Positions 992 to 55,719 of a stretch of DNA of 64,000 nt are shown in pieces; within the stretch, counting starts at the first letter, position 1, and each line of letters starts with the position of its first letter. The DNA comes from Squalus acanthias (lineage: Eukaryota). The stretch spans positions 124,746,001 to 124,810,000 of the forward strand of contig CM059431.1 of NCBI GenBank assembly GCA_030390025.1. The letters are read 5' to 3'. Under the pieces are notes generated by a model, which worked only from the letters and a program-made list of their open reading frames with translations, was not told where the DNA came from and searched no databases. The position numbers and the translations under genes were made by a program.

Positions 992-995
992 GAAA

Positions 996-11820: not shown

Positions 11821-12170
11821 CTGAAAATGATCAAAAAAAACATTTCTGACCAACAATCATCCAATACACTACTCGTCACAGGATAAAATCACTCAGACTT
11901 GCAGTAATTAACTGAAATAAAAGTGGTGAAGATATAAAGTTGGTAACATCTCCTTTAGTATTCTCTTATATATTTTCTATTGAATCTGTCCTTTTTCATT
12001 CTGTGTGTTTTCAGAAGCTGATTCACCGGTTTTATCAGTTCAATTATCTTTTCAATAAACTGCCCACATTAATTTTTAAATTACCAATAAAAAATATTTT
12101 TGCTGGCAATTTTTCCTAAATATTTTTTACGGCTTTTTCACTGCTCAATTCATTTTGTCTTGAAATAAAT

Positions 12171-15100: not shown

Positions 15101-18100
15101 CAACCATGGACTTTGCTCTGACTCTAATGCTATTGTTGAACTTTGCTCTGAATCTCGAGCTATTGTTGAACTTTGCTCTGAATCTCATGCTATCATCGAA
15201 CCTTGCCCTGAATCTCATGATGTCATTGAACTTTGCTCTGAATCTACTGCGATCTTTGAACTTTGCTCTGAATCTAATTCTGTTGTTGAACTTTCCTCTG
15301 AATCTCATTCAATCTTTGAAATTTGCTTTGAATGTCATGCTATCATTGAACTTTGCTCTGAATCTCATGCTATCACTGAAATTTAGTCCGAATCTCATGC
15401 GATGATTGAACTTTGCTCTGAGTCTCGTGCGATCATTGAAATTTTGTCTGAATCTCGTGCGACCATTGAACTTTTCTCTGAATCTCATGAAATCATTTAA
15501 CTTTGCTCTGAATCTCTTGCTGTCATTGAACTTTGTTCTGAATCTCAAGCTGTCATTGTACTTTATTCTGGAGCTCCTGCTTTCATTGAACTTTGCCTTT
15601 GTAGAGTTTCGCAATTATCGCGAATCAAAATAATATGAGAGAAGCAGGCTCAATTGATCATTTTTATTAAACAAAATGCTGCCCTGATAATAAAGGACAC
15701 AGAAGCCTGTAAAATGGCCGCCGCGCATCGTGGCAGAAGCTTCCAGAGACACAGTGGGCAGACAAGATGGCGTTGAATATACATTCATTATGAGATTGGA
15801 TCATACTCGGTACACATTGAAAAGGCAGGATGCAACCCGTTTGCATCCTGGACAATAGCAATGATATAAGTGCTGGAATCGTTTCATACGCACAGTAAGG
15901 ATCATTGAACTGGGCCATCGAGAACCCATCCAGACACATCAATACACAAATACCCCCCCGGCTCAACAATGAGAGAGACATTGGCGGGTGATTAAGCCAG
16001 TATTCGGGGGGCCCCAAAACCAGTCGAGGAGACGATTCATACACATCCTGGCTGGCTCAACAATGGAGAAGGTATTAATGGATTGTTGGCCAGTTTCAGG
16101 TGTTACCGAAACCCGTTAAGAAGATAATCGCCCCATGCTGGGAGTTTTGGGCGCCAAAATCACACAAAGAATAAATGTTTAGATTTGAGCGGGAGATAAG
16201 GCTGACAAAGCAGTATAACTATAGGGAACAAATGTCCATCGCTGTCTCTCTTCCTGGGCTCTTCCTTGACTCTCTCTCTCTCAGGCTGGACCCTCTCGGG
16301 CTCTCTTGGCTCTTGACTTTTCGCCGTGCTGGTCGGTTATTCGAGTGTTGGGTGGAGCTCAATCGGAACGAGCCGCCTCGACAGGGCAAGTAACAGGGTA
16401 CACCATCCCGAGCGTCGGTAAACGGTGTCCGGACCCAGAGGCCCGAGCAACCAGAAGAAAGACGAGAAGAAATTCCACGTGCCGCCGAGGTCAGTAAACC
16501 CCGACCGCGCCCAAAGATATAACGACAGAATCCATCTTTGAATTCTACAGACTACTACATGAACCGTTTTCTTTGAATTCTACGGACTACTCCACGATCC
16601 GGTCTGAATCCATCGACCACTTCATGACATCAGGGAATCTGGCTTACCTTTCGCAGCAGCGAGAGTAAACAAGTGGGGTGCAGAAACTCTTACAACCACG
16701 TGACAGTCAGGCGCTGCAGCAAAACGAGCTGAGTGCCTCACTTTAAATTTCCGAAGTGAGCCGAGTGGTGAGCATGTTTTCCGATCCTACAAATCCAGAC
16801 GTAGTTTAGGAATACTGAGGGAGGGTGGTTTTCTAAGGTTAATGTATAATGTGTTCCCCGTTTTACGATGTGTCGTGTGTTCCCCATTTCCATAGACCAA
16901 GTTTTATGAACGTGTGTATACTGGTACTCTCTTTGATCTGCGCCTATGACATGTATTTCATGATTTTAGACGCCATGCAATAAAGATATTCATTTTGTGC
17001 TATTCAACCGGGTCTATTTGAGTCTTTTCTCTGCATTACTGCTCCTTGCGTCTAAGTCCAGGGGTCAGAACCGTAAGGGCGAGTGGGTCGAACCACTCAC
17101 AGGTGCTTATTGCAAAAGTCTGGCCGGAGTCCAGAGCAAGCAATAGTATAGGCAACGAAGGCCTCACCTCGCACCAGTACCGTGACCCCTTACACCTTGA
17201 ATATCACGCTTTCATTTAACATTGCTTTGAATCTCATGCTAGCATTGAACTTTGCTCGGAATCTCATGCTATCATTGAACTCTTGTCTGAATCTCGTGCG
17301 ACCGTTGAACTTTTCTCTAAATCTTATGAAATCATTGAACTTTGCTCAGAGTCTCATGCTATCATTGAACTTTAGTCTGAATCTTGTGCATCATTGAACA
17401 TTGATCTGAATCTCATGCTATCATTGAACTTTGCTCTGAATCTCATGCTATCATTGAACTTTGCTTTGAATCTCATACTTTCATCGAACTTTGCTCTGAA
17501 TCTCATGCTATCATTGAACTTTGCTCTGAATCTCATGCTATCATTGAACTTTGCCTGAATCTCATGCTGTCATTGAACTTTGCACTGAATCTCATGCGAT
17601 CATGCATTATCTTATGAAAGAATTCTGGTCTTGATGAGATGAGACAGTTTTTGAATCTCAATAAATAACCTTCATTGAAACAGCAGAATGCGTGGCTCCG
17701 AATGGGAGGTCTTGTTGGAACAGAACAATGGTTAACCCAGGATAAAAGATCTTGATTAAACTTCTTAAAGATGACACATGAAATAAGGGACATCTGCCCT
17801 TCACAGCTTCTATAAGGTGAACCCTGAACACCTGGAGATGCAGCAGATTCTGGAATATTACAAGCTGATGTGACAGTAAGAATTGCAGAAGTCAGCAGAA
17901 AGATAATTAGTGATTCTCTTGCAACCTTTTACTTTGCTTTGAATCTAATGCTATCATTGAACTTTGCTCTGAATCTCATGCTATCATTGAACTTTGCTCT
18001 GAATCTAATGCTATTGTTAAACTTTGCTCTGAATCTCATGATATCATTGAACTTCAGTCAGAATTTAATGCTATAATTGAACTTTCCTCTGAATCACATG

Positions 18101-21100
18101 CTATCACTGAAATTTAGTCCGACTCTCATGCGATCATTGAACTTTGCTCTGAATCTCATGAAATCATTGAACTTTGCTCAGAATCTCATGAAATCATTTA
18201 ACTTTGCTCAGAATCTCATGCTATCATTGAACTTTAGTCTGAATCTTGTGCCTCATTGAATATTGATCTGAATCTTCTGCTGTCATTGAACTTTGTTCTG
18301 AATCTCATGCTATCATTGAACTTTGCTCTGAATCTAATTCTATTGTTGAACTTTAATCTGAATCTCATGCGATCATTGAACTTTTGTCTGAATCTCGTGA
18401 AATCATTGAACTTTGCTCAGAATCTCATGCTATCATTGAACGTTGCTCTGAATCTCATGCTATCATTAATCTTTGCCTTGAATATCACGCTTTCATTTAA
18501 CCTAGCTTTGAAACTCATGCTAGCATTGAACTTTGCTCTGACTCTCATGCTCTCTTTGAACTTTGCTCTGAATCTAATTCTATTGTTGAACTTTCCTCAG
18601 AATCTCATTCAATCTTTGAACTTTGTTCTGAATCTCATGCTATCATTGATCTTTTCCTTGAATATCACGCTTTCATTTTACCTTTCTTTGAAACTCATGC
18701 TAGCATTGAACATTGCTCGGAATCTCATGCTATCATTGAACATTGCTCTGAATCTCATGCTATCATTGAACATTGCTCTGAATCTCATGCTATCATTGAA
18801 CGTGGCTCTGAATCTCATGCTATCATTGAACATTGCTCTGAATCTCATGCTATCGTGGAACTTTGCTCTGAATCACATGCTATCATTGATGTTTGGTCAG
18901 AATCTCATGCTGTCATTTAACTTGGCAGTGAATCTCATGCTATCATTGTGTGAAGGAATAAACTATATAAGCTTTTTAGAAAAAGCACTAACTTATGAAA
19001 GAATTCTGGCCTTGTTGAGATGAGACAGTTTTTGAATCTGAATAAATAACCTTCATTAAAACAGCAGAATGCCCGGCACCGAATGCGAGGCCTTGTTGGA
19101 ACAGAACAATGGTTAACCCAGGATAAAAGATCTTGATTAAACTTCTTAAAGATGATACATGAAATAAGGGACATCTGCCCTTCACAGCTTCTATAAGGTG
19201 AACCCTGAACACCTGGAGATGCAGCAGATTCTGGAATATTACAAGCTGATGCGACAGTAAGAATTGCTGAAGTCAGCAGAAAGATATTTAGTGATAATTA
19301 ACTTTGCTTTGATTCACTTGCAACCTTGAACTTTGCTCGGAATCTCATGCTATCATTGAACTTTGCTCTGAATCTTGTGCATTATTGCACATTGATCTGA
19401 ATCTCATGCTCTCATTGAACTTGGCTCTGAATCTCATGCTATCATTGAACTTGGCCTTGAATCTGATGGTATTGTTGAACTTTTCTCTGAATCTCATGCT
19501 ATCTTTGAACTTTGCTCTGAATCTAATTCTATTGTTGAACTTTCCTCAGAATCTCATGCTATCATTGAACTTTGCTCTGAGTCTTGTGCATCATTGCACA
19601 TTGATCTGAATCTCATGCTCTCATTGAACTTGGCTCTGAATCTCATGCTATCATTGAACTTGGCCTTGAATCTGATGGTATTGTTGAACTTTTCTCTGAA
19701 TCTCATGCTATCTTTGAACTTTGCTCTGAATCTAATTCTATTGTTGAACTTTCCTCAGAATCTCATTCAATCTTTGAACTTTGATTTGAATCACACGCTA
19801 TCACTGATCTTTGCTCTGAATCTGATTCTATGAATGAAGTTTGCTCAGAATCTCATGCTATCATTGAACTTTGCTCAGAATCTCATGCTATCATTGAACT
19901 TGGCTCTGAATCTCATGTTATCATTGATCTTTGCCTTGAATATCATGCTTTCATTTAACCTTACTTTGAAACACATGCTATCATTGAACATTGCTCTGAA
20001 TCTCATGCTATCATTGAACTTTGCACTGAATCTCATGCTATCATTGTGTGAAGGAATAAACTATATAAGCTTTTTAGAAAAAGCAATAACTTATGAAAGA
20101 ATTCTGGTCTTGTTGAGTTGAGGCAAATTTTGAATCTGAATAAATAACCTTCATTGAAACTGCAGAATGCATGGCTCCGAATGCGAGGCCTTGTTGGAAC
20201 AGAACAATGGTTAACCCTGGATAAAAGATCTTGATTAAACTTCTTAAAGATGATACATGAAATAAGGGACATCTGCCCTTCACAGCTTCTATAAGGTGAA
20301 CCCAGAACACCTGGAGATGCAGCAGATTCTGGAATATTACAAGCTGATGCGACAGTAAGAATTGCAGAAGTCAGCAGCAAGATATTTAGTGATAATTAAC
20401 TTTGCTTTGATTCACTTGCAACCTTGAACTTTGCTCTGAATCTCATGCTATAATTGAACTTTGCTCGGAATCTCATGCTATCATTGAACAGGGCCTTGAA
20501 TCTGATGCTATTGTTGAACTTTCCTCAGAATCTCATTCAATCTTTGAACTTTCCTCAGAATCTCATGCTATCTTTGAACTTTTCTCTGAATCTCATTCAA
20601 TCTTTGAACTTTGATCTGAATCACATGCTATCACTGAACTTTGCTCTGAATCTGATTCTATGAATGAAGTTTGCTCAGAGTCTCATGCTATCATTGAACT
20701 TTGCTCTGAATCACATGCTATCTTTGGACTTTGCTCTGAATCTCCTGCTATCATTGAACTTTCCTCTGAATCACATGCTATCATTGAACTTTGCACTGAA
20801 TCACATGCTATTACTGAAATTTAGTCCGAATCTCATGCGATCATTGAACTTTGCTCTGAATCTCATGCGACCGTTGAACTTTTCTCTAAATCTCATGCTC
20901 TCATTTAACTTTGCTCAGAATCTCATGCTATCATTGAACTTTAGTCTGAATCTTGTGCATCATTGATAATTGATCTGAATCTCACGCTAGCATTGAACAT
21001 TGCTCTGAATCTCATGCTATCATTGATCTTGGCTCTGAATCTCATGCTATCATTGAACTATGCTCTGAATTTCATGCTTTCATTTAACTTTGCTCTGAAT

Positions 21101-21559
21101 CTCCTGCTGTCATTGAACTTTGTTCTGGAGCTCCTGCTATCATTGAACTTTGTTATGAATCTCATGCTATCATTGATCTTTGCCTTGAATATCATGCTTT
21201 CATTTAACCTTGCTTTGAATCTCATGCTAGCATTGAACTTTGCTCGGAATCTCATGCTATCATTTAACCTTGCTTTGAATCTCATGCTATCATTTAACTG
21301 TGCTCTGAATCTCGTGCTGTCATTGAATATTGTTCTGAATTTCATGCTATCATTGATCATTGCTCTGAACCTGATGAAATCATTGTACTTCACTTTGAAA
21401 CTCATGCTATCATTGAACTTTAGTTTTAATCTCATGCTATCTTTGAACATTGCTCTGAATCTTGTGTAATAATTGAACCTTGCTTTAAATGTAGTGCAAT
21501 AATTGAACCTTGCTCTGAATCTTGTGTAATAATAGAACCGTGCTCTGAATCTCATGCAA
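12171..21559. repeat. Tandem satellite, 30-bp unit CTGAATCTCATGCTATCATTGAACTTTGCT, interrupted by a solo LTR and three copies of a ~300-350 bp spacer
   Basis: Hundreds of degenerate 30-bp copies; 10-aa periodicity in the ORF track (LNLMLSLNFA / MRFRAKFNDS). Confidence 0.97.
15600..17194 (+). mobile_element. Solo LTR inserted in the satellite
   Basis: TGTAGAG...CCTTACA termini; TSD CCTT at 15596-15599 and 17195-17198; homologous to the A-type LTRs. Confidence 0.95.
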
Positions 21560-21744
21560 TCCCTGCTAAGATTATGACTAAATAATTCATTTTTTACTTT
21601 GTGAAATTACAATTTTCCATCTTTTGGCAAATACCATATCTAACAGTTGAGCTGGACTTTTTCTTTGTCCAATACATTAATCAAGATCTTCTAATGGGTG
21701 CAAAGGATAAGGAATTCATATATTCAAGACATAGATCGCTAGAT

Positions 21745-34619: not shown

Positions 34620-35426
34620 GGGAGGAGGCAGCCATTCGATTGGCCTTCTGGAAGGACCGTCCTTGATCGTCTCATCAGACTGCGATTCCAATAAATTAAA
34701 GCGCAAGTCCCTGTTGCTCACCAAATCCCCATCATTCCATCCCTGTCACAGGTCATATCACAGCACAAAGCTGAAATGAAACCAACTACAAAAGAATCCA
34801 AACTGAATTAATAAATTTATCAAAAATCAGTGAACACTTATTTACACCAATAATATTAACTACTCACCCTTGTGCAATCCCTTAGTGCCTCTTGTTACTG
34901 TGCCTTTGCCTACTCTAGTGCTCCTATGAAGTGTTGGCCTGGTGGCTGCAGTACGGCTGGTGGAAGGCTGCTGAGTGTCCGTGTGGGAGACTTCAGATGG
35001 CCTTGCAGGACACCCTCCACCATCTCTGGGCCTGGAAGGCCCGGCTGTAGACTGCACCACCTCAGCATGGGCGGCAGCAGTCTGGACTGGCTGGATGACA
35101 GGCAGCGACAAGGGCAATGGCGGAGTGGCAGTGGTGGGAGCAGGAATGCTGTCATCCTGAGAGAGGACAGCGGGTTCCTGCTCCAATGACCCAGTGCATC
35201 TCCCCAGGGCAGCACTTCAGCATCCCCAGCAATCTGTTGGAGCACAGATTGCTGGCCAGCTGCGACACTGTGAAAGCCCCAGTCAATGGTGGTAGACTCA
35301 GCCAAGCTGGCAGCAGTCAGAGCTCATGTGGCATCAAGTTGAGATTGCATGAGATCAGTCTGAGATTGGATGCCAACAAGTACTCACCCGTAGGGACATC
35401 GGAAATGCCGGTTTCAGGCATGCACA

Positions 35427-37145
35427 GTGCATGTGCTGGAAACCGGCATTTCCGATTTGTCAAGAAAGCAAGCCACCGTGTCCAAGACCGTCACTGACCT
35501 CATCTCCTCTGGAGATCTTCCCCCCACGGCCGCCAACCTCATAGTTCCCCAACCGCGCACAGCCCGCTTCTACCTCCTTCCCAAGATCCACAAACAGGAC
35601 TGCCCCGGTAGACCCATCGTTTCAGCCTGTTCTTGCCCCACGGAACTTATCTCTTCCTATCTCGACTCTATTTTTTCTCCCCTTGTCCAGTCTCTTCCCA
35701 CCTACATCCGCGACTCTTCCGATGCCCTCCGCCATTTTAACAGTTTCCAGTTTCCCGGCCCCAACCGTCTCCTCTTCACTATGGACGTACAATCCCTCTA
35801 CACCTCCATTCCCCACCAGGATGGCCTGAGGGCGCTCCGCTTCTTCCTTGAACAGAGGCCCAACCAGTCCCCATCCACCACCACCCTCCTCCGCCTGGCT
35901 GAACTTGTTCTCACATTGAACAACTTCTCCTTTGACTCTACCCATTTCCTCCAAATTAAAGGTGTTGCTATGGGTACCCGCATGGGTCCTAGCTATGCCT
36001 GCCTTTTCGTGGGATATGTGGAACACTCTTTGTTCCAGTCCTACTCGGGTCCCCTCCCTCACCTCTTTTTCCGGTACATTGATGACTGTATCGGTGCCGT
36101 CTCCTGCTCTCGCCCTGAACTAGAACATTTCATTCACTATGCTTCCAATTTCCACCCTTCCCTCACCTTCACATGGTCCATCTCCGACTCTTCCCTTCCC
36201 TTCCTCGACTTCTCCATCTCCATCTCTGGGGATAGGTTATTGACTAACATTCACTACAAGCCCACTGACTCCCACAGCTACCTGGACTACACTTCCTCCC
36301 ACCCCGCCTCCTGTAAGGACTCTATTCCATTCTCCCAGTTTCTCCGTCTCCGCCGCATCTGCTCTGATGATGCCACCTTCCATACCAGTGCTTCCGACAT
36401 GTCTTCCTTTTTCCTCAACCGAGGATTCCCCTCTACCGTGGTCGACACGGCCCTCGACCGTGTCCGTTCTATCTCCCGCACTTCTGCCCTCACCCCTGCC
36501 CCTCCCTCCCGGAACCACGATAGGGTTCCCCTTGTCCTCACCTTTCACCCCACCAGCCTCCACATTCAACGGATCATCCTCCGCCATTTCCGCCACCTCC
36601 AGCGTGATCCCACCACCAAACACATCTTCCCCTCACCTCCCCTTTCAGCATTCCGCAGGGACCGCTCCCTCCGCGACACCCTAGTCCACTCCTCTACCAC
36701 CCCCAGCACCCCTTCCCCTTCGCCCGGCACCTTCCCGTGCACGCGCAGGAGATGCAACACCTGCCCTTATACCTCCCCTCTTCCCACTGTCCAGGGCCCC
36801 AAACACCCCTTCCAGGTGAAACAGCGATTTACTTGTACTTCCTGCAATTTAGTATACTGTATTCGCTGCTCACGATGTGGTCTCCTCTACATTGGGGAGA
36901 CCAAACGCAGATTGGGTGACCGCTTTGCGGAACACCTCCGTTCAGTCCGTAAGGGGGACCCCGAGCTCCCGGTGGCCTGTCACTTTAATTCACCGCTTCA
37001 CTCCCACTCTGACCTCACCGTCCTCGGCCTATTACACTGTTCCACGGAAGCGCAGCGTAAGCTCGAGGAACAGCACCTCATCTTTCGTTTAGGCACGCTA
37101 CAGCCCTCTGGACTCAATATCGAGTTCAACAATTTTAGATCATAA
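35427..37145 (+). CDS. Penelope-like element ORF (RT + GIY-YIG endonuclease), 5'-truncated but uninterrupted
   Basis: FYLLPKIHK, GRPIVS, MDVQSLYT, GVAMGT and FRYIDD RT motifs; NLVYCIRC..CGLLYIGET GIY-YIG domain; true homology starts near 35465. Confidence 0.92.
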   Translation: MHVLETGISDLSRKQATVSKTVTDLISSGDLPPTAANLIVPQPRTARFYLLPKIHKQDCPGRPIVSACSCPTELISSYLDSIFSPLVQSLPTYIRDSSDALRHFNSFQFPGPNRLLFTMDVQSLYTSIPHQDGLRALRFFLEQRPNQSPSTTTLLRLAELVLTLNNFSFDSTHFLQIKGVAMGTRMGPSYACLFVGYVEHSLFQSYSGPLPHLFFRYIDDCIGAVSCSRPELEHFIHYASNFHPSLTFTWSISDSSLPFLDFSISISGDRLLTNIHYKPTDSHSYLDYTSSHPASCKDSIPFSQFLRLRRICSDDATFHTSASDMSSFFLNRGFPSTVVDTALDRVRSISRTSALTPAPPSRNHDRVPLVLTFHPTSLHIQRIILRHFRHLQRDPTTKHIFPSPPLSAFRRDRSLRDTLVHSSTTPSTPSPSPGTFPCTRRRCNTCPYTSPLPTVQGPKHPFQVKQRFTCTSCNLVYCIRCSRCGLLYIGETKRRLGDRFAEHLRSVRKGDPELPVACHFNSPLHSHSDLTVLGLLHCSTEAQRKLEEQHLIFRLGTLQPSGLNIEFNNFRS

Positions 37146-43039: not shown

Positions 43040-44689
43040 TGTAGAATTCGCAATTATCGCGATTTCATTTTAATAAGGAGAAAACACAAGTTTCGTTCAA
43101 AACAGCTTTTATTTCAGCGGAATGCTGTCAGGTTTAAATTGGACACAAGCAGCCTGTAAAATGGCCGCCGCACCGCGTGACAGAACATTCGAGACTTTTC
43201 GGCAGGCAGACAAGATGGCGTTCCAATAAACATTTTTGCAGGATCGATAACGATTCAGCACAGTGAAGACAATACACAGGACATTATGGGTTTACAGTAT
43301 AAACATCGATACTGGAATCGGTCTCCCAGGTACAAAGGAAAGCCATCAAGGGCCCATCCAAAGGACATTAATATGTAAACTCCCAACGGCTCTACGATGA
43401 GAGAACCGTTAGCAGGTAGTTATACAGGACACTTGGAAGCCCCAAACCCCTCCAGGGGGAACACCGACCGATTTGACAATGGGAGAAATATTAACAGGTA
43501 CTCAAACATTCAGGAGTAGCCCCGAAACCCATTAAGGACAGAGATCACCCATACAGGACATTTTTGGGCGCCAAACCTTAAACAAAAGAATGGACATTGT
43601 AGTTGGGCGGGAAACGGAAGAACTGTGCACTATAATTGCAGGCCCAAACCGTCCATTCGCTCTCTTGACTCTTGCCTCGTGTTCGTGACTCTTGCTCTTT
43701 TGCTCTTGACTCTTGCCGCTTGCTGCTGTTATCATCGTGGCTGCTCCTGTGTTTTATCCGGTCGATTCGTAACCTCGTGGCTGCTCCTGGGTAAAAGACT
43801 GTTGCAAAGACCTATGTTGGTAGCTGGCAGCGGAACCGAAGGCCCGGGATGAGACGAGATGAGATGAGATGAGATGAGAGGAGAAGAGAAGAAGACCTTA
43901 TCCATCGCCACGGTCAGTAAATCCCGACCGCGCCTGTAGGTCGATCAGCCAAGTCTTCTCGACAGGAAGTTTTCTTCTTTAACAAGACATATTGCATCGA
44001 TGATAACTGGACTGTGCAAACACATCGTATCAGCGATATTGACAACGGTGCTCCACCATACCCTGTATCCAACCAACAGAGGTCTTCACTACAGCGGACG
44101 GTCCAGCCGACTGACCGAGCAGCAGAAGCAGTAAACAAGTGGGACCAGGAGATCTCCTGACCAACACGTGGGTGCTGCGGTGAAAAACATCCGATCAGCT
44201 ATTCGGGATTTCTCCGAGTTATTACGAGTGGTGAGCATGAGTCTCGGGATCCTACGAAGCTAGTTTTAGGATAGTTATTGATAGGGGAGGGTTTAAAGTT
44301 TAAGGATATTTGTAATGTGTGCCCTATTTACGTTGTGCTGGTCGTTCCTCGTTTCCCTAAGAGTGATTATAACTGTTTGTAAGATTGTACTGTCATTAAT
44401 CTGTGCATATGACATGTATTTCATAATTTTAAGTATCATGCAATAAAGATTTTCCATTTCGTACCGTTCAAACCAAGTCTACATGAGTTTTATCTCCATT
44501 ACTGCTCTCGCATCTAAGTCCAGTGTCTAGAACCGTAAGGGAGAGTGATTCGAACCACTCACAGGGGTGTCTAGTGTTCCCAGACTGGCTGGAGACCAGG
44601 CCTAGACCCGCACTGACATACAGGCTGCACAGAGCCGCGTGAACCTCACAGGCCACGAGACACGCAGGGTCAGGAGAGTATCCCTTACA
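43040..44689 (+). repeat. 5' LTR of element B
   Basis: TGTA...TACA termini; TATAAT at 43631; AATAAA at 44442. Confidence 0.97.
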
Positions 44690-44693
44690 GAAA

Positions 44694-46505
44694 ATGGCGA
44701 CCGCGGCAGGACACTGGCAGCGAGAGGGTAGTGTGTTAGATTTTGGAATGACTGTACGAAATGTGATGCAGGAAAAGATAGCGGATTACGTATTTGGAAA
44801 GGTTAATCTAACGAAAAAGTGGATAAGCGAACTGTTAGCGGATAAGAGCCCCCTAGAGGCAGCTGAAAGGTGGACGGATAGTAAGGAGCATAAAAAGGCA
44901 GTTGAGAAAGCAGTCTGGCTTATGTGCTACAAAAGGCAGGTTCAGATTTCAAACCAGACCAATACAGCGCTAACCGCTCGAATCAAGCAGTTAGAGGAGG
45001 AAATGGAGGAGAAGGTTTCTGGAGGGGAGGCGCTCATTAAGAGTTTAAATGAGTTACGCCAGGAAAGCCAGGAAGTCTCCAGTTACCTTAAAACAAGGGT
45101 AGAGTATCTCGAGTGCCAGATCACTGAAGCAAAATTAAACGAGAGTAGGATGAAGGAAAGATGTAACCGTCAAGCTGCCCAGATAAGAACTCAAGAAGAG
45201 AGCTTAATGGGGGTTAGGTCGGCGTATAAGTTGGCCCTTGAGGATAAGTTTCAGGGAGCCGACCATAGCGCCTGCGAAAAAGAGATAGAGAGCCTCAAAA
45301 AGGCCGTGAATAATGCGAACGGCATGGTGTGCCTTATTAATCCGTCGGCACGCCAGCCGCTAGTAAATGAGAGATTTAGAAATTCCCCACCAAGTAAAGC
45401 AGAAGAGGTAGTAGCCACTGCGCCCTCCGCGCCACCCAGCTATTCAGAAACCTGGGTTAGGGAGGAAGCAACGGAAGAAACAAAAGAGCCCGTTGAAAAG
45501 GAGGTAGAAAAGGGATCGTTGTATCCAGTAACGGGGATTAAAAGGGGCCCAAGCAGAAACGGTGGGGAAGAACCGGGGGATCTCCTCGGACAGCTGGTGT
45601 TGCCTCACAGTTCACATCAGCTGAGGGCTATGATAAACCACGTAAGGAAGCTGACCGAGATAGACGACCCTTCCGTACATTTTAGGGAAGTTGAGCAAGC
45701 CGCAGCCATCAACGGCTGCGATGATGGGGAGACAGCAAAAATGCTGCTGTTCTCTTTAGATAGCTCGGTCCTTCAGTGTCTCTCAGGCGATAGCAAGAGG
45801 GGTAATAAAAGTTATGAGGAATTGAAAAATGAGGTCCTAGAAGTAGTGGGAGCGAACGACGGAGGTCCGTTTGCTAGAGTGGGACAGACAGTGCAGATGG
45901 AGGGAGAACCCCCGAAGGTTTTTGCCGACAGGCTGTGGCCAGTATATGAGCGCAGCTGTCTAGGTGCGCCCGAGCGCGAAGATGTGGAAGGCGCCGCTTT
46001 AATTCATTGGCTTAGGTGCATAATAGCCAACAGTTTACCAGCCGTTAGAGAGCAGGCAAAAGCCTGGTTCGATCCCAATGACCTCAACCTTACGGAAGAG
46101 TCGGTCTTGAATCGACTCACGTTAGGTTACCGTAACATAAGGGGTATGGCAACACGTCCCTTTAAGGGAAGAGTACATGAGGTACGACCCGCAGCCCCGG
46201 CTCAAAGAGAGTGGCATCAGGAGGGTAATCGCGCCCCACAGGCAAGTAATGCCTGTTACGGGTGTGGGAAGACAGGGCACTGGCGCAAGCACTGCAGGAA
46301 CCCTTGGAAGGATTCCAAGGATAAAAATCCCGCGGTCCGAGCCCAGGCGCCTGTCCCGGCTAAGGAAGCAAAGGCACCCACCTCTCCCGAAGACCTCGAG
46401 GCAGTGTTAGGAGTCATGCGCAAGATGGTTTTGAATGCGCGTGGACAGGTGGCGGTCGCAACCGGCCCCGTAGGTGCCGCAGGACCGTCTAATAGTGCCC
46501 CATGA
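44694..46505 (+). CDS. gag: Gag (603 aa): coiled coil, PSAPPSY late domains, capsid-like region, single CCHC knuckle
   Basis: Position directly after the LTR; CYGCGKTGHWRKHC; open ORF. Confidence 0.95.
   Translation: MATAAGHWQREGSVLDFGMTVRNVMQEKIADYVFGKVNLTKKWISELLADKSPLEAAERWTDSKEHKKAVEKAVWLMCYKRQVQISNQTNTALTARIKQLEEEMEEKVSGGEALIKSLNELRQESQEVSSYLKTRVEYLECQITEAKLNESRMKERCNRQAAQIRTQEESLMGVRSAYKLALEDKFQGADHSACEKEIESLKKAVNNANGMVCLINPSARQPLVNERFRNSPPSKAEEVVATAPSAPPSYSETWVREEATEETKEPVEKEVEKGSLYPVTGIKRGPSRNGGEEPGDLLGQLVLPHSSHQLRAMINHVRKLTEIDDPSVHFREVEQAAAINGCDDGETAKMLLFSLDSSVLQCLSGDSKRGNKSYEELKNEVLEVVGANDGGPFARVGQTVQMEGEPPKVFADRLWPVYERSCLGAPEREDVEGAALIHWLRCIIANSLPAVREQAKAWFDPNDLNLTEESVLNRLTLGYRNIRGMATRPFKGRVHEVRPAAPAQREWHQEGNRAPQASNACYGCGKTGHWRKHCRNPWKDSKDKNPAVRAQAPVPAKEAKAPTSPEDLEAVLGVMRKMVLNARGQVAVATGPVGAAGPSNSAP
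44695..44712 (+). promoter_or_regulatory. Primer binding site, tRNA-Arg(TCG)
   Basis: TGGCGACCGCGGCAGGAC is the 18-nt complement of ...GTCCTGCCGCGGTCG-CCA (vertebrate tRNA-Arg-TCG, recalled from memory). Confidence 0.82.
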
Positions 46506-49500
46506 CTAGAACCAGCACAGCCCGTCTACCTGTGTCCGCTCAGCTATGATGCGTGGAGGCGACCTGTGGTGGAGATGGAGGTAGAGAAACAAAAGGGCAG
46601 TTATTTGTTGGACACGGGAGCTTCTTGCACCATAATCCATACAGATGACCCTTTTGACTCGCCGCTATCTACCAAGGTCCCATTCACGCTAGCAGGGTTC
46701 ACAGGGAAAGAACAGGCTGGCACGTTTTCCCTCCCGCTATCCATTCGTTTAGGGACACTTCGCCTTAAGTGGAAGTGTATACTGATGGCATGGCAAAAGG
46801 GGGGTGGAAGAGGTATTCTCGGGTCCGATCTGCTAGCGGGACACGGGATCCTCGTGGACCTCAGAAATCACTGTCTCTGGGGGGCTAAAGGGGAAAAAGG
46901 CGAGGTAATGGTAATTCAAGGGGAGGAAGAAACAGGGGTCCTGTGTACCGTACAGCCATCCGGAGGCTACGACCTCAGGCTTATGGTCGCAGATGTCCCA
47001 ACGGACATGCAAACGTACGTGACAGATAATATGCACGCGTTTGCAACCCACAAGCACGATTGTGGGAGGGTGGTCGGGTTTGAGGTCAGCGTAGATGGGG
47101 ACCCCATGACCCGACCCCAAAAGCAGTATAACTTCCCCAAAGAAGCAGAACCCGATATGGAGGCAGCAATGTCTTCCTTGGTGCAGCAGGGCGTGTTGAG
47201 GCCGATAGCCACACACGTGAACTCCCCATTATGGCCGGTTAGGAAGCCGGATAATTCGTGGAGAGCCACGGTGGACTACAGAGTCCTTAACAGTAACATC
47301 CCCGCCTGCGCGCCCACAGTAGCAGCAGTTGCTGACCTAATAGGGAGCATCCCAGCGTCCGCGACCACGTTCACGGTGCTGGATATCTCGAACGGTTTTT
47401 GGTCCATCCCGCTGCGGCGAGAGGACCAGTACAAGTTTGCCTTTACGTTTAAAGGGCAACAGTACACGTGGAACTGCTTGCCACAAGGTTTCCACAATAG
47501 CCCCAGTATTTTTCACCAGTGTATGGCAGGAAGTTTAAAGGAGTTTAGTCAGCCCAATCAGATAGTACAGTATGTGGATGATTTGCTCCTATTTACGGAC
47601 TCAAGGGAGGAGCACGGACCACTGCTGGACGAGTTATTGGAGCTGTTAGCGAGAAAGGGTTTTAAAGTAAACCCAAAGAAAGCACGTATCGGTCAGCAGG
47701 AAGTAAAATTCCTGGGACTGACCCTACGCGCTGGGGAAAGAGCCATAGACAAAGCAAGGAGGGAGTCGGTACAAGAATTACCGATTCCCAACAACGTAAG
47801 GGGTGTGAGGTCCTTCTTGGGACTGACCGGTTACTGCAGGGATTTTATCGAGGATTATGCGGCCACAGCGGCGCCGCTCCTCCGACTCCTCCATAAGGGA
47901 GTAGAGTGGCTTTGGGACGAGGGCTGCCAAGCAGCCTTCGAGAAGTTAAAAAGGGATCTGCAGACCGCGCCAGCCTTAGGGGCCATAGATGGGGGGAAGG
48001 AGTTTTTCCTGGAGGTAGCTGCCAGCGGAGACAGCTTAAGCGCCGTGCTGCTCCAAGAGCGTCACGGCAAGCTGAGGCCGGTTGTCTATTCATCCAGGGT
48101 ATTAACGGATGTGGAGAGAAGTTTTTCCAATTGCGAAAGGCACCTTTTAGCCACGCATTGGGCTGTGAAAAGATCAGCGATCTTCACAGGGCTCTCTCCC
48201 ATCACTCTCCTCACACATCACACACCAACTAAGATGCTTCTGGATGGGAGGATTAAAGACGGGACCGTAAGCAGCGCACGCATTGCGCGTTGGACCCTTC
48301 TTCTCTCCCAGTTGGACATCAGAGTAAAAGGTCTTTGCGAGCCCAGGCTTGCGGCCAATTTGGTATACCCCGGTACAGCCCACCGGTGTTCGGTGGAGGG
48401 GGTGTGGGAGGTCAACATAGGTTTACGGGCCGGGATACATCCCACTGGGCGCGAGATTTATGTTGATGGGTCTAGCACAGTATCTGCTGGCGAGCGACTC
48501 ACAGGGTGTGGAGTTTATGACCCTGCGGCAGACCTTGCCCTGGCGATCAAGCTCCCTAGCACCATGAGCGCGCAGCAGGCTGAGCTGTCTGCCGTGGTGT
48601 ACGTGGTAACCCACCCAGACATTTTCCCAACCCCATACACGATTTGCTCGGACAGTATGTTCACCTGCAATTCGTGTACGGAATACCTGGCCATTTGGTC
48701 CCGCCGTGGATACACCTCCGCGGACGGGCGACCTTTAACGGTAAAGCCCTTGCTGGAGAAGATCTTAGCAGCAGCAGTAGGGGAGGAAGGGGAGATTTTC
48801 ATCCATAAAGTGAAAGCTCACTCCTCCACAGAGCCCCGTGGGGAGGGCAACCGGCAGGCGGATGCGCTAGCCAGGGAGGGTGCCCGCGACGGTACTTTCT
48901 GGAACCCCTATAGAACCGGACCCATAGCAGCGGTCCGAGGTGGGGACGGGAATACCGGGAACACCAGGGTAGCATTGCCCCTAGACCTTAAGACCGTCCA
49001 AGCCCAGGATCCCGCCCTAAAAGCAGTCCTAAAAACGATTGCTGAGGGGAGGCAGGTAGAAGGTCCGTACAGTACGGCAACCCTCTCAGTTAAGGAAGGC
49101 ATGCTGTTCCGCGAGGAGCAGTGGGTTGTGCCGCAGCAGCACAGGAGGGAATTCCTCCAGTTGGCTCACGAGGGACCAGGGGCAGGGCACCCCGGGCCCG
49201 AGGTTACCTGGCAACGGGTAGAGCAAGCGGGATGGTGGCCAGGGCTCAGGGAACAAGTCCGCGAGTTCTGTGCAAACTGTCTTGTGTGCGCTGCAAACAA
49301 CCCAGACCCCCAGAAAAGGAAGGTGCCCATGGGACACGTAAGAAGGGTAGAGGGACCATGGCAGTCGATACAGATCGACTATATAGGACCCCTGCCCACC
49401 ACCCAGGGAGGTTATAAGTACTGCCTCGTCCTGGTGGATGTGTTTTCCAAGTGGGTGGAAGCCTTCCCTTGTCGAACAGCTACGGCACTGGGTACAGCAA

Positions 49501-51008
49501 AAATCTTGGTCCGGGAAGTGTTCTCGCGGTGGGGACTCCCCCGTTTCGTGGAGTCAGACCAAGGGAGTCATTTCACCGGCCAGGTGATGCAGAACACCCT
49601 CATGCTTTTGGGCATTGAAGGGAAGTGGCACGTAGCACACAATCCCCAGTCATCCGGGATTGTTGAACGTATGAACCGGACCCTGAAGGAGAAATTGAGG
49701 AAAGAGACTAGGAACTCGCCCCAAAAATGGGCGGAAGTTCTGCCTTTAGTCCTCATGGGGGTCCGGGCCAGTCAGTCAAAAAGTACGGGGTACTCCCCGC
49801 ACGAGGTAATGACCGGCAGGCTCATGCGAACCCCCACCCATGTGCTAGCCCCGGTGCTCACTGAGGGTCAGCTTCAAGAGATCAGCAGGGACAAGTTCGC
49901 CCAAACTCTCTTGGAGCGCCTGAAGCAAGTTTATGAGCAGGCGGCTGGGAACATGGGAAGGCAGCACCAGGGCAATCGCTTGTTGCTGGAACCCCGCAAA
50001 ACGCGGGAGTGGGAAGTAGGAGACCAGGTCATGGTCAGAAACTACGCCAGAGTAGGGAGTCTGGAACCACTGTATATGGGACCCTACAACATTGTAGACA
50101 AGGCGAGTCCCATGGTTTACGCCGTAAAAGTACCTCGGCGCACTAAGTGGTTCCACATAAACCAATGTAAACTGTACCAGCCGGGTGCGCAAGGGAAAAC
50201 TACAGGGGTAAATCCCGCCAATGGGAAAACACAGCCCCAGGTAGGACCACAAGGCACACAGGCAGGCGTAGCAGCTTGCATCAGGGGAAGGGACATCCCG
50301 GACGATCATGCAGCGTTTTTCTGGAGTTGGGGGTTAGATGACGAGGACCCCAGGGTACCCTGGTCAGATGAGGATAGTGCAGATGAGCATAGTGATGATG
50401 ACGGGTGGTTTCAGAGGAACGGTCTGGAAGGATTGGGGCCGCTAGGTAGAGATCCATACGGGGTGGACACACAAGCTGCAGGTCCCGACAGCAGGAGGAA
50501 GGAGCTAGAGGAGGCCGGGCCAGCCGCTATGTGGTTCCCAGAGGTGTGGCCGCCCGCTTTGAACGTCCAGTCCTCAGGGGAGGCAGAGTTCGCGAGTGAA
50601 GGGCCGCCTGCTGGGCCGAGCAGGGCGGGGCCCCGAACTGCCAGCCCCGAGGTTAGGGAGGCGGAGTCAGCGGAGGCGGGGCTGGCGCCTGTGATGGAAC
50701 CCCAGGTCATCCCGTTGAAGGTCTCGGGACCCGGTCCGTCCGTCACGGAGCCCCCGCCCATAGCAATTCCCCGTAGGTCAAGCAGAGTACCCCAGCCCAG
50801 GAAGACGTGGTCAGGTCCACAGGCTGCCCCAGGGCGTAAGTTTCAGGTTAAGATAACCCGGGTAGAGACAGGCCACATCGAGGCAGTAACAGGCTGCGGC
50901 AGATCAGAGGAAAGGGTCAGCGCAGCAACAGGCTGCGGCAGATCAGAGGGAAGGGTCAGTGCCCTCCCACCGTCGGGAAGAGCTCGCAGCAGCCTTCTCA
51001 GGATTTAA
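46506..51008 (+). CDS. pol: Pol (PR-RT-tether RH-RNase H-IN-long tail), in frame with gag after TGA
   Basis: LLDTGA; LPQGFHNSP; YVDD (47571); IYVDGS/SAQQAEL/SDS/KVKAH/GNRQAD; HHCC; QIDY...ESDQG...SSGIVERMNR. Confidence 0.97.
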   Translation, partial: LEPAQPVYLCPLSYDAWRRPVVEMEVEKQKGSYLLDTGASCTIIHTDDPFDSPLSTKVPFTLAGFTGKEQAGTFSLPLSIRLGTLRLKWKCILMAWQKGGGRGILGSDLLAGHGILVDLRNHCLWGAKGEKGEVMVIQGEEETGVLCTVQPSGGYDLRLMVADVPTDMQTYVTDNMHAFATHKHDCGRVVGFEVSVDGDPMTRPQKQYNFPKEAEPDMEAAMSSLVQQGVLRPIATHVNSPLWPVRKPDNSWRATVDYRVLNSNIPACAPTVAAVADLIGSIPASATTFTVLDISNGFWSIPLRREDQYKFAFTFKGQQYTWNCLPQGFHNSPSIFHQCMAGSLKEFSQPNQIVQYVDDLLLFTDSREEHGPLLDELLELLARKGFKVNPKKARIGQQEVKFLGLTLRAGERAIDKARRESVQELPIPNNVRGVRSFLGLTGYCRDFIEDYAATAAPLLRLLHKGVEWLWDEGCQAAFEKLKRDLQTAPALGAIDGGKEFFLEVAASGDSLSAVLLQERHGKLRPVVYSSRVLTDVERSFSNCERHLLATHWAVKRSAIFTGLSPITLLTHHTPTKMLLDGRIKDGTVSSARIARWTLLLSQLDIRVKGLCEPRLAANLVYPGTAHRCSVEGVWEVNIGLRAGIHPTGREIYVDGSSTVSAGERLTGCGVYDPAADLALAIKLPSTMSAQQAELSAVVYVVTHPDIFPTPYTICSDSMFTCNSCTEYLAIWSRRGYTSADGRPLTVKPLLEKILAAAVGEEGEIFIHKVKAHSSTEPRGEGNRQADALAREGARDGTFWNPYRTGPIAAVRGGDGNTGNTRVALPLDLKTVQAQDPALKAVLKTIAEGRQVEGPYSTATLSVKEGMLFREEQWVVPQQHRREFLQLAHEGPGAGHPGPEVTWQRVEQAGWWPGLREQVREFCANCLVCAANNPDPQKRKVPMGHVRRVEGPWQSIQIDYIGPLPTTQGGYKYCLVLVDVFSKWVEAFPCRTATALGTAKILVREVFSRWGLPRFVESDQGSHFTGQVMQNTLMLLGIEGKWHVAHNPQSSGIVERMNRTLKEKLRKETRNSPQKWAEVLPLVLMGVRASQSKSTGYSPHEVMTGRLMRTPTHVLAPVLTEGQLQEISRDKFAQTLLERLKQVYEQAAGNMGRQHQGNRLLLEPRKTREWEVGDQVMVRNYARVGSLEPLYMGPYNIVDKASPMVYAVKVPRRTKWFHINQCKLYQPGAQGKTTGVNPANGKTQPQVGPQGTQAGVAACIRGRDIPDDHAAFFWSWGLDDEDPRVPWSDEDSADEHSDDDGWFQRNGLEGLGPLGRDPYGVDTQAAGPDSRRKELEEAGPAAMWFPEVWPPALNVQSSGEAEFASEGPPAGPSRAGPRTASPEVREAESAEAGLAPVMEPQVIPLKVSGPGPSVTEPPPIAIPRRSSRVPQPRKTWSGPQAAPGRKFQVKITRVETGHIEAVTGCGRSEERVSAATGCGRSEGRVSALPPSGRARSSLLRI

Positions 51009-51291
51009 AGGGGCCGCCCTGAGAACGGGCGGCATTGTAAAGTTATTAGTTTAAGGTTTTAAGTTTTAGTTTAAAGTTTTAAGTAGTTTTAATAAGTTTA
51101 AGTTTGTAGTGTTTTTAACAGATAACGACAAATGATGGGAGTTTTAAGGCTAGGTTTAGAGGAAGTCTATTTAGCAAACGTTGAAGTTTACGTGAGGCGA
51201 GGTCAGGGGACCCGCTCACCCTTCACAAAAGCCAGAGACTTTTTGCGAGGCTGGCTACCTCATTCTATCTGATCACAGGAACCAAGGAAGG

Positions 51292-53643
51292 ATGGAACGA
51301 CTTCTAGTTTTGCTCGTGGCAATCGGATGTGGATTGGCCTATCGGGGCCTCACCAAGGATGTCGTGGTGTTTGGATGTTCCGGGGACACGGCCCCCATCG
51401 CGGTGGATGGGACCGGGAGACGGAAGGCAGAAGGGACCAGCACCTATTTCCACAAGGGAAGGTGGCCAGGATGGCTGGGAACGAACTCAACGGAGTATTC
51501 CAGCACATCGGGGTTCGCCTACAAAGAGACTTCTTTAATGTGCCCCAAAGTACGGATCATCGCACCCAGGATCAGCGTCACCGTCGGCAAACGGATTTGT
51601 TTGACCTGCAGTGGGAATGTCCCATTGAGCCGATGGTGGTGGCTGCGAAAGCTGAGCAAAACTATGAGGAACTCTTCGGTTGAGTGGGAGCGACTGGGTA
51701 ATAATACCCATCGGACAATTACGGGGACAGATGGACAAGTGAAAGTCTGTTGGGACAAATGGTGGGAACCAGATGAGGGGATTTATGTTTGTATGTGGGG
51801 GTCAAAGTACGTTTGCCCCAAAGGCATCTCCATATTCTTTATTAACCAGTGGCAGGATAACGGACAGGGGATGAGGTGGGATGCGAGCACCAGGGGGTGC
51901 GGAGCCCCATACTCTCCGATCCCAGTAAATGCCACTGAGCTCATTACGCGCCCACGCAAAGCCCCGCCCACGATTCCGGTGGTTCTAACTGAGGAAGAAG
52001 GGTGCCCTAAAACTAGTAAGGGACCCGGGAACGGTTTGGTACTGGTCCCCACAGACCAGATACTATTTCAGGGAGTGCATTACGCGGTGGCCTCGGTGAT
52101 TTTAAATCTCACTGAGGTACGGTTACCAGAGTGGTGCCCCAAAAAGACGGAACAGTTGTACCAGGTCCTGTTGACCAAGATGTTCAGGCAATTTTACGAG
52201 TTTGATTTTGCAGAAATTGATAAGACAAGTTTGTACACCGCACCGCAGGAAGTTTTGGACCAAGTAGGGAGGCAAAGAAGGGGTTTGGTGAACGATGCGT
52301 TCACTGCTTTTAACACAGGGACATCTGTGGTCAACGCTCTAGACAGTGTGGAGCTGCAGACCCAGATTAATGGTTTAAAAACACAGTTAAAGGATATTCT
52401 TACAGATGAGAATAAAGTGGTAGGGTCGGGTCTGCACGAGGACCAAGCCATGACACTACACTTAAAAGAGATTATAGCAGAGCTGGAGAAACATGCGCGT
52501 ACGGTAAATGCCCTGATTAGGGAAGATCGGAATGCATCCGATCAAGCTGCGCAGAACGAGGTGTGCGTGCTTTACGGGGCGTGGTTACTGGGCGAGGGCC
52601 GCAGTAATTTGGAGGATTTAAAACAAGGTTTGGTCCCGTCCTGGATAAGTAACAAACACCTGCGGGCGCTCCACCCTTTTCAGAATGCATTAAGTCCGTG
52701 CCAGCTCAGGCTAGCTTCAGAAGCTTACCCAGTCCCCGTGGACTGCGGACGTTCAAACCATACTATTATGGGAATAGTATTACGCATGCCGGTTTTGGGC
52801 AACACAGCAAAGCCCGCCCCGGTGTATCGGGTAGAGAACATTGGTGTCATTCAGGGGGGAGCCCACATTCGTTATGCAGCGGTTCCACCTTACGTCATCC
52901 GCTGGGAGCAAACGATGACAGGTACAGATCTCTCTGGTTGTCGTGGCAGGGGAGCACACATAATACTGTGCCCCCAGCACTTGAATGCCTTTTTAACACC
53001 ACAGTGCGGGTTCAGAACGGCTGGCGCCAAGTCCATGAATTGCACCATGGAGGCAATGGCCCAAGATCATGTGCCTCCGCAGGTAGCATACATCGGGGGT
53101 GGAACATATTGTGTTACCACTGCAGCGCAACACTACCAGCATGGAAACCGTAGCCGGTGTCCGGTGAGTGACAGCAGTTTCTGTTTTAAACCCAGGGCTG
53201 AAGTTCAAGTAGCACAACAGCGAATTATCCCAATCCCTGAACCATCCACTGTTCATCTCACAGTAAAAGAGAATTTTACCGACTTGCAGCGATTTGTCGC
53301 ACATTTTGGGTACCTCATTCCCCCTCTCCCCGAGCATTTAACCAAACTTCTGAAAGCCGTCGCGGTGTCACAAAAGCATTTCTATACATTAGAACAGAAA
53401 ACCGTCGAGATAGGTACAGACATTTTGGACATAGTGGTTCCACCGTGGTGGAATCTGTTCACGAATATTGAAGTGCCCTCATGGGTCAGAATAGCCTCCC
53501 ACATTTTAGTCGTCTGTCAAGTGTTTATTGTAGTATACCTTTTGTTCATACATTGTAAAAGAGACAAGCGCCTCACCAAGCATGAGAACACGGGAGAGTG
53601 GCGAGAACGTTACGTGCGCGTGCACGATGAGAGCGCAGTGTAA
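51292..53643 (+). CDS. env: Env (783 aa): signal peptide, Ig-like domain, furin site RQRR, fusion peptide, heptad repeat, Cys-rich region, TM, YxxPhi tail
   Basis: Hydrophobic N-terminus; RQRR|GLVNDAFTAF at 52270; C-terminal TM IASHILVVCQVFIVVYLLFI; splice acceptor ATCACAG at 51278. Confidence 0.93.
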   Translation: MERLLVLLVAIGCGLAYRGLTKDVVVFGCSGDTAPIAVDGTGRRKAEGTSTYFHKGRWPGWLGTNSTEYSSTSGFAYKETSLMCPKVRIIAPRISVTVGKRICLTCSGNVPLSRWWWLRKLSKTMRNSSVEWERLGNNTHRTITGTDGQVKVCWDKWWEPDEGIYVCMWGSKYVCPKGISIFFINQWQDNGQGMRWDASTRGCGAPYSPIPVNATELITRPRKAPPTIPVVLTEEEGCPKTSKGPGNGLVLVPTDQILFQGVHYAVASVILNLTEVRLPEWCPKKTEQLYQVLLTKMFRQFYEFDFAEIDKTSLYTAPQEVLDQVGRQRRGLVNDAFTAFNTGTSVVNALDSVELQTQINGLKTQLKDILTDENKVVGSGLHEDQAMTLHLKEIIAELEKHARTVNALIREDRNASDQAAQNEVCVLYGAWLLGEGRSNLEDLKQGLVPSWISNKHLRALHPFQNALSPCQLRLASEAYPVPVDCGRSNHTIMGIVLRMPVLGNTAKPAPVYRVENIGVIQGGAHIRYAAVPPYVIRWEQTMTGTDLSGCRGRGAHIILCPQHLNAFLTPQCGFRTAGAKSMNCTMEAMAQDHVPPQVAYIGGGTYCVTTAAQHYQHGNRSRCPVSDSSFCFKPRAEVQVAQQRIIPIPEPSTVHLTVKENFTDLQRFVAHFGYLIPPLPEHLTKLLKAVAVSQKHFYTLEQKTVEIGTDILDIVVPPWWNLFTNIEVPSWVRIASHILVVCQVFIVVYLLFIHCKRDKRLTKHENTGEWRERYVRVHDESAV

Positions 53644-54069: not shown

Positions 54070-55719
54070 TGTAGAATTCGCAATTATCGCGATTTCATTT
54101 TAATAAGGAGAAAACACAAGTTTCGTTCAAAACAGCTTTTATTTCAGCGGAATGCTGTCAGGTTTAAATTGGACACAAGCAGCCTGTAAAATGGCCGCCG
54201 CACCGCGTGACAGAACATTCGAGACTTTTCGGCAGGCAGACAAGATGGCGTTCCAATAAACATTTTTGCAGGATCGATAACGATTCAGCACAGTGAAGAC
54301 AATACACAGGACATTATGGGTTTACAGTATAAACATCGATACTGGAATCGGTCTCCCAGGTACAAAGGAAAGCCATCAAGGGCCCATCCAAAGGACATTA
54401 ATATGTAAACTCCCAACGGCTCTACGATGAGAGAGCCGTTAGCAGGTAGTTATACAGGACACTTGGAAGCCCCAAACCCCTCCAGGGGGAACACCGACCG
54501 ATTTGACAATGGGAGAAATATTAACAGGTACTCAAACATTCAGGAGTAGCCCCGAAACCCATTAAGGACAGAGATCACCCATACAGGACATTTTTGGGCG
54601 CCAAACCTTAAACAAAAGAATGGACATTGTAGTTGGGCGGGAAACGGAAGAACTGTGCACTATAATTGCAGGCCCAAACCGTCCATTCGCTCTCTTGACT
54701 CTTGCCTCGTGTTCGTGACTCTTGCTCTTTTGCTCTTGACTCTTGCCGCTTGCTGCTGTTATCATCGTGGCTGCTCCTGTGTTTTATCCGGTCGATTCGT
54801 AACCTCGTGGCTGCTCCTGGGTAAAAGACTGTTGCAAAGACCTATGTTGGTAGCTGGCAGCGGAACCGAAGGCCCGGGATGAGACGAGATGAGATGAGAT
54901 GAGATGAGAGGAGAAGAGAAGAAGACCTTATCCATCGCCACGGTCAGTAAATCCCGACCGCGCCTGTAGGTCGATCAGCCAAGTCTTCTCGACAGGAAGT
55001 TTTCTTCTTTAACAAGACATATTGCATCGATGATAACTGGACTGTGCAAACACATCGTATCAGCGATATTGACAACGGTGCTCCACCATACCCTGTATCC
55101 AACCAACAGAGGTCTTCACTACAGCGGACGGTCCAGCCGACTGACCGAGCAGCAGAAGCAGTAAACAAGTGGGACCAGGAGATCTCCTGACCAACACGTG
55201 GGTGCTGCGGTGAAAAACATCCGATCAGCTATTCGGGATTTCTCCGAGTTATTACGAGTGGTGAGCATGAGTCTCGGGATCCTACGAAGCTAGTTTTAGG
55301 ATAGTTATTGATAGGGGAGGGTTTAAAGTTTAAGGATATTTGTAATGTGTGCCCTATTTACGTTGTGCTGGTCGTTCCTCGTTTCCCTAAGAGTGATTAT
55401 AACTGTTTGTAAGATTGTACTGTCATTAATCTGTGCATATGACATGTATTTCATAATTTTAAGTATCATGCAATAAAGATTTTCCATTTCGTACCGTTCA
55501 AACCAAGTCTACATGAGTTTTATCTCCATTACTGCTCTCGCATCTAAGTCCAGTGTCTAGAACCGTAAGGGAGAGTGATTCGAACCACTCACAGGGGTGT
55601 CTAGTGTTCCCAGACTGGCTGGAGACCAGGCCTAGACCCGCACTGACATACAGGCTGCACAGAGCCGCGTGAACCTCACAGGCCACGAGACACGCAGGGT
55701 CAGGAGAGTATCCCTTACA
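54070..55719 (+). repeat. 3' LTR of element B
   Basis: Matches the 5' LTR except A43405/G54435 by eye. Confidence 0.97.

Follow-up and report, generated by a model that had tools for sequence, protein, structure and literature searches.

The window, i.e., the whole 64,000-nucleotide stretch of Squalus acanthias DNA that was analyzed, carries a young endogenous provirus, the features of which are collected in Table 1. Its 5′ LTR (43040-44689) and the 3′ twin at 54070-55719 differ by 1 mismatch in 1650 bp. The element studied here comprises the last 185 nt of the 5′ LTR, at its U5 end; U5 itself presumably starts approximately 20-30 nt downstream of the AATAAA. The gag TGA is followed by CTAG (46503-46509) with pol in frame, which we take to be a known read-through context, and pol encodes PR, RT, two RNase H-like domains, and IN. 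The closest named gag relative is from skate (51%), and the nearest named pol relatives are from frog and coelacanth (44-45%). The env product (51292-53643) has a furin site and an F-protein-like ectodomain, and an atlas comparison gave scores of 0.93-0.94 to clusters with Baculo_F (19-24% of members) or Fusion_gly (21-85%). A Pfam scan of env was blank, and comparison with PDB yielded no useful match; the N-terminal stretch is Ig-like, with weak PDB matches (E about 1). Elsewhere in the window, an older A-type provirus with stops in gag occupies positions 1-10150, and other LTRs end at 6618 and 10149. Repeats of ~30 bp form a long array (12155-21560) that is interrupted by an LTR at 15600-17194, and an open reading frame at 35394-37145 gave weak RT and GIY-YIG matches and is Penelope-like.

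Table 1. Provirus and U5-leader features in the window; names in quotation marks are those of an initial annotation made from the sequence alone
Feature	Position	Strand	Remarks
5′ LTR of young provirus	43040..44689	+	1650 bp; 4-bp target duplication TTGA
Major splice donor	44225..44236, cut 44230/44231	+	Inside LTR, ~210 nt upstream of poly(A) signal
Poly(A) signal AATAAA	44442..44447	+	Read from sequence
Outer U5-leader helix, 5′ strand	44497..44511	+	Pairs with 44720-44733; includes first 2 nt of the "acceptor"
Inner U5-leader helix, 5′ strand ("D-arm")	44520..44527	+	Pairs with 44710-44717
Junction motif TAGAACC	44528..44534	+	Candidate primer-activation signal; GAACC is complementary to G52-C56 of the primer tRNA
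Closing (U5-IR-like) helix, 5′ strand ("GNRA hairpin")	44535..44542	+	Predicted pairing with 44681-44688
8-nt-loop hairpin	44543..44560	+	TCGAACC at 44550-44556 complements primer tRNA G52-A58
Variable hairpin domain within closing helix	44561..44680	+	Window's family only; partners switch between subfamilies
Closing helix, 3′ strand, LTR terminus	44681..44688	+	From folding
gag ATG (44694-96) overlapping 18-nt PBS (44695-44712)	44694..44712	+	Primer host tRNA-Arg(UCG)
gag-pol-env	44694..53643	+	gag to TGA 46503-05; in-frame pol; env ATG 51292, acceptor 51278/79
Leader strands of inner (44710-17) and outer (44720-33) helices	44710..44733	+	Inside gag codons

A GT..AG joint from 44230 to 51279 was found in one contig from one of four runs, presumed to be RNA, with a short side of 25 nt; the env ATG follows 13 nt after the acceptor thus used (51278/51279). 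The window's other LTRs keep the donor motif. Another candidate donor, CCGTAAGG, was rejected because the observed joint uses 44230 instead. With the donor placed ahead of the poly(A) signal, U5 falls within the env intron, and on the evidence of this one contig only unspliced RNA carries it. Such a restriction fits a function in reverse transcription or packaging and excludes one in env translation. The unspliced leader is ~500 nt or more long and holds six upstream ATGs before gag.

The U5-core pattern matched 11,634 times in the genome. The expansion of this endogenous retrovirus is very large and young, with 2,912 LTR-PBS junctions, and 40 of 40 scored copies were identical to the window's U5-PBS stretch. 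Intermediates for the alignments were drawn from 30 U5-core matches, 30 PBS-anchored loci, and 20 gag-anchored loci. Families D (30 loci), E (25), and F (20) were found by divergent-protein searches plus the PBS pattern, with TCGAACC included in the search pattern for family E, while families G, H, I, and J were reached through a frog RT fragment. Identity to the window's gag was 41-43% for D and ~36-40% for the full-length E and F matches. D, E, and F use the same primer and keep the two-part core described below, and the insert that holds the outer stems of the initial annotation is absent from them. The A1-A3 rows of the 26-, 33-, and 34-row alignments are hand-picked representatives, and, under the label C, subfamilies A1, B, and C are taken together in the swap, fold, and duplex comparisons. 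Rows without a PBS call (L114 and L174-L178) or without the core (L071 and L172) and one mis-anchored row (L156) were dropped; L184 and L067 were removed as long branches from the lineage reconstruction of loop states.

The initial annotation had proposed that an outer stem in U5 changed in a compensatory manner from TATTGC/GCAATA (881-886/914-919) in A-type LTRs to GTCTAG/CTAGAC (44569-74/44602-07) in B-type LTRs. All four strings occur at these positions, and so does a GCGTCT variant that it had noted in the LTR at 15600. However, when the stem columns were taken from the 33-row alignment with intermediates, the two stems turned out to occupy nonhomologous columns, 72-77/105-110 for A and 69-74/129-134 for B. 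In terms of homology, CTAGAC and GCAATA belong to different arms, and the window's subfamily has deleted 13 nt that are still present in its closest relatives. On its own columns, the A stem was 78.4% paired with a double change in 0 of 6 pairs; the B stem was 74.7% paired with double changes in 2 of 6 pairs, of which one is supported by a single row, and had a pairing probability (P) of 0.68-0.72 in the window copy folded with the leader. We regard the B stem of the window's subfamily as a local replacement, not as compensation, and according to the folding model the stem may form.

The upstream part had been drawn as a cloverleaf. Its D-arm was 64.4% paired with a double change in 0 of 4 pairs, contained an unpaired C-A in 21 of 26 rows, and had a P of 0.00 once the leader was included in the fold. 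The acceptor stem, the GNRA stem, and the inner CTGG/CCAG stem are pairable in the window's family (99%, 99-100%, and 99-100%, respectively), but none of them showed a double change, P with the leader was 0.00, 0.001, and 0.009, respectively, and the three stems could not be aligned in families D, E, and F. Only the hairpin called T-arm, with its 8-nt loop, behaved as a covarying stem, being 96.9% paired with double changes in 3 of 5 pairs. The broader claim that U5 harbors a conserved RNA structure under selection was nevertheless borne out by matched base changes across families. Folding energy did not rise above that of shuffles (z, -1.2; from -1.63 to +2.18 in 16 copies). A further helix inside the insert (44567-77/44610-19) was tried and rejected: it was 86.7% paired with 2 of 10 pairs double-changed in the window's family, where it outperforms the annotated stems, yet its P was 0.001 in the window copy and it is absent in D-F.

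In the folding models, the strands assigned to the D-arm and the GNRA hairpin, together with part of those assigned to the acceptor, find distant partners in the leader downstream of the PBS and at the LTR end. The inner U5-leader helix was 91.2% paired, with double changes in 4 of 8 pairs (34 rows, four families); double-change cells amounted to 44 versus 12.0 in shuffles, and slid controls were 25-52% paired. In a swap test, the own leader was the best partner in five of six groups, and 0 of 552 gag windows paired as well. This helix was poorly predicted in the free RNA of A2 (0.21) and F (0.35). For the outer helix, P was 0.79-0.97 in the window copy, the own-family leader was the best partner in six of seven groups, and 2 of 276 gag windows were as good. 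On these sequence comparisons, the U5-leader helix is very probably real. The closing helix was predicted with a P of 0.87-1.0 in the window copy and with a median of 5.7-8.1 pairs in six groups, with shifts in register; in fixed columns it was 71.4% paired with a double change in one of seven pairs, and the swap test found the own partner best in just two of six groups. An invariant TAA at 44515-17 has no partner, and primer pairing gives no explanation for it.

The covariation of the 8-nt-loop hairpin was measured over 26 rows from four families. The hairpin had a P of 0.99 in the window copy folded with the leader, and G-U intermediates assign it to the + strand; one of its double changes sits on a CpG, on both strands. 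Loop positions 3-9 are fixed, and positions 1-2 differ between lineages (AT, GG, or AG), as expected if tRNA positions 59-60 are already taken by the PBS. The loop is predicted to be open, and TCGAACC was exact in 63 of the 79 elements fetched by the PBS pattern or gag protein. Starting from a GG/GTCAG ancestor, the lineage of the window has recovered both AT at loop positions 1-2 and GTCTAG, and hence these positions are not neutral; pairing with the primer leaves this unexplained. At 44528-29 and 44548-49, the youngest lineage returned stepwise to the D-F states, by reversion or recombination. A sublineage of D lacks the hairpin altogether (10 of the first 100 of 611 D1 LTRs); the deletion is found in both LTRs of one D provirus (L269/L270) and at other loci (L105, L115, L126, and L271-L278). 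The strands of both helices were kept in 10 of these 10 copies and GAACC in 9 of them. As this sublineage spread with the frame intact, the hairpin is accessory and can be dispensed with.

The PBS is perfectly complementary to a host tRNA-Arg(UCG) gene (L091), and a second PBS variant matches a second isodecoder (L092). Both variants occur in the same subfamilies (L061-L152), as would follow from renewal of the PBS by copying of the primer. The genome also holds tandem ~1.6-kb arrays (L093-L102) of intron-bearing tRNA-Arg(TCG), tRNA-Ser, and tRNA-Pro-like genes, with 438 pattern matches. At the junction between the helices, GAAC(C/T) is present in 73 of 79 elements, all retrieved with queries that lacked the motif. 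Its duplex with the primer T-arm comprises 5 bp at about -6 kcal/mol, and the motif is mostly unpaired in the predicted free RNA; with the PBS blocked in folding, GAAC was unpaired with a probability of 0.53-0.76, and the inner helix dropped to 0.1-0.4 in the A-D groups. The tRNA T-arm is near-palindromic, so its complement resembles a T-arm itself, which accounts for the tRNA look of U5. Complementarity of U5 loops to the primer anticodon or D-arm, noticed by eye, was confined to single subfamilies and dropped.

The two TCG isodecoders have the same T-arm positions 52-58, which are nearly universal; this leaves hardly any room to test covariation of U5 with the primer, family G offering one case. 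This family has an RT of 60% identity, a tRNA-Arg(CCG) primer, and a U5 that cannot be aligned with that of the window. Four of six fetched copies showed the layout and were folded, the predicted order being a long U5-leader helix, an unpaired TTGAACCC, and a closing helix. TTGAACCC complements positions 51-58 of G's own primer, extending by one base, an extra C, beyond the match of the window's family. The PBS of G (L231-L235) is one base longer than the tRNA-Arg(CCG) gene L267 predicts. In families H, I, and J, no GAAC was present within 130 nt of the PBS (five copies).

We propose that the U5-leader frame probably serves as an ASLV/HIV-like platform on which host tRNA-Arg(UCG) initiates reverse transcription, a reading drawn from sequence comparison and folding, in which the tRNA would contact the U5 motifs. 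The PBS would take tRNA positions 59-76 and thereby free the T-arm, which is complementary to both motifs (52-56 for the junction and 52-58 for the loop), and the predicted closing helix would bring both motifs beside the PBS even though the insert ranges from 24 to 147 nt. The incoming tRNA would displace three U5-PBS pairs, and its freed T-arm would then pair with the junction GAAC(C/T), the kept contact, while the hairpin loop would provide a second, accessory T-arm contact. In elements of the window's family, docking of the tRNA would also leave the gag AUG covered. A more elaborate version is conceivable, although we hold it only tentatively and consider it unlikely to be right as a whole: junction motif and hairpin loop would form a twin primer-activation device, each gripping the T-arm of tRNA-Arg, either that of one primer or those of a dimer's two primers, and the docked tRNA would bury the gag AUG and so divert the RNA from translation into packaging and reverse transcription.

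The conserved loops of the frame could alternatively act in packaging or dimerization, either by the hairpin loop (core UCGA; UUCGAA in four lineages) kissing its counterpart on the second genome or by Gag reading the GAAC motifs. That the element is restricted to unspliced RNA would suit such a role, and so would the near absence of a leader between PBS and gag, owing to which packaging signals must sit in U5 or gag; moreover, the youngest lineage regained the six-base palindrome in a loop that is predicted open. A dimer initiation site, however, maintains its loop palindrome through matched changes, whereas numerous GG lineages here break the six-base palindrome with no matching change and keep the 4-nt core. 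The C's that are not part of the palindrome stay fixed, the hairpin-less sublineage spread, and TCGAAC is predicted to be paired in G. We consider this role unlikely.

Control of gag translation, through a shunt, an IRES, or a switch of the U5:AUG type, would give a function to the long unspliced leader with its six upstream ATGs and to the gag ATG, which overlaps the PBS in 77 of 79 A-D elements; in F, the outer helix ends at a downstream ATG. Yet E and F have no ATG overlapping the PBS (0 of 40) and keep the frame all the same, so the helices frame the PBS and not a fixed AUG. Since this control would also leave the two anti-T-arm motifs unexplained and cannot serve env, we think it quite improbable.

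A true tRNA mimic with a cloverleaf, an elbow contact, and a site for RNase P had also been suggested; such a mimic might form on transcripts without the leader. In its favor, all changes in the 99% pairable acceptor of the window's family are wobble tolerant and the acceptor is predicted in an isolated A copy, the invariant G of the "D-loop" and C of the "T-loop" could pair, and the loop has returned to TTCGAAC. Nonetheless, the covarying acceptor, the D-stem, and the T-loop pattern expected of a mimic were all lacking: no double change occurred in acceptor or D-arm, the D-stem carries the C-A mismatch, and the acceptor is absent in D, E, and F and has a P of about 0 with the leader. The T-loop of a tRNA has 7 nt, with U54 fixed and positions 59-60 free, but the loop here has 8 nt, varies at the place of U54, and is fixed at that of 59-60. 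ARAGORN found no tRNA in the window, and Rfam had no match in U5. A mimic is therefore very unlikely.

Finally, it is most improbable that the minus-strand GGTTCGANNC acts in DNA as a Pol III B box (TFIIIC site), even though it would predict the same seven fixed letters and tRNA-derived A and B boxes are known in Helenus-type LTRs (PMC10886601), because no A box was found on either strand (best matches with 2-3 mismatches to the consensus, like background), the wobbles place the stem on the + strand RNA, and long-range covariation with the leader needs RNA.

The primer initiation platform, which we favor, is a known retroviral design, present here as a variant in a little-studied lineage. In ASLV, a U5-leader stem is followed by the U5-TΨC interaction and a U5-IR stem. 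The arrangement here is alike in that a U5-leader helix is followed by a short anti-T-arm motif, a helix ending at the LTR terminus, and then the PBS. It differs from ASLV in the arginine primer, in a closing helix that encloses an insert of up to ~120 nt and a hairpin bearing another anti-T-arm motif, in leader strands that lie within gag codons, and in the AUG that overlaps the PBS in A-D; support here is phylogenetic. The U5-TΨC pairing has been proposed for Rous sarcoma virus, and a PAS/anti-PAS pairing for HIV-1 (PMC3185550; for HIV-1 also PMC1865047 and PMC11181671); the HIV-1 pairing is described in PMC3185550 and PMC11181671 as disputed and as absent from the cryo-EM initiation complex. 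In the HIV-1 PBS segment, which has a PAS stem, a TLE hairpin, and a three-way junction (PMC11181671, PMC1865047), a U5-leader stem and a U5 hairpin domain likewise meet around the PBS, together with an anti-T-arm motif. However, the 8-nt PAS of HIV-1 is masked inside a stem, whereas the motifs here are predicted open, and its TLE mimics an anticodon arm, whereas the hairpin here is the complement of a T-loop.

Other likenesses are more partial. Helenus TRIMs also carry tRNA-like letters within the LTR but are short and nonautonomous and have boxes A and B (PMC10886601); the element here lacks an A box, forms part of a complete provirus, and resembles tRNA in antisense. The position of the major splice donor ahead of the poly(A) signal, seen here in one contig, recalls foamy viruses (PMC3694450), but unlike in foamy virus, gag and pol lie in one frame across the TGA. 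Lokiretroviruses and SnRV-like ERVs share the gag-pol-env order, the tether plus RNase H (two RNase H-like domains), and an F-like Env with an RXKR-type furin site (PMC7947760, PMC4977317). The RT motifs here, however, looked different from those of Lokiretrovirus by eye, and, with a tree that contained no named Loki sequence, we leave the lineage unassigned. Loki is reported in 0 of 3 chondrichthyan genomes (PMC7947760), and among the 7 of 8 TGGCGACC places listed from the supplement of that paper, the published Loki sequences include no arginine PBS. A literature search of titles and abstract openings, with subscription literature thinly covered, returned no description of this fold in fish ERVs.

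Even for HIV-1, the contact that activates the primer is under dispute. If the twin device proves true, the natural occurrence of elements that have the hairpin and of others that lack it would allow a direct test of the disputed U5-TΨC pairing. With thousands of natural copies that show matched changes, a hairpin-less sublineage, and a differently primed sister family, this lineage is an unusually clean comparative case for the two-helix frame being old and general among retroviruses.
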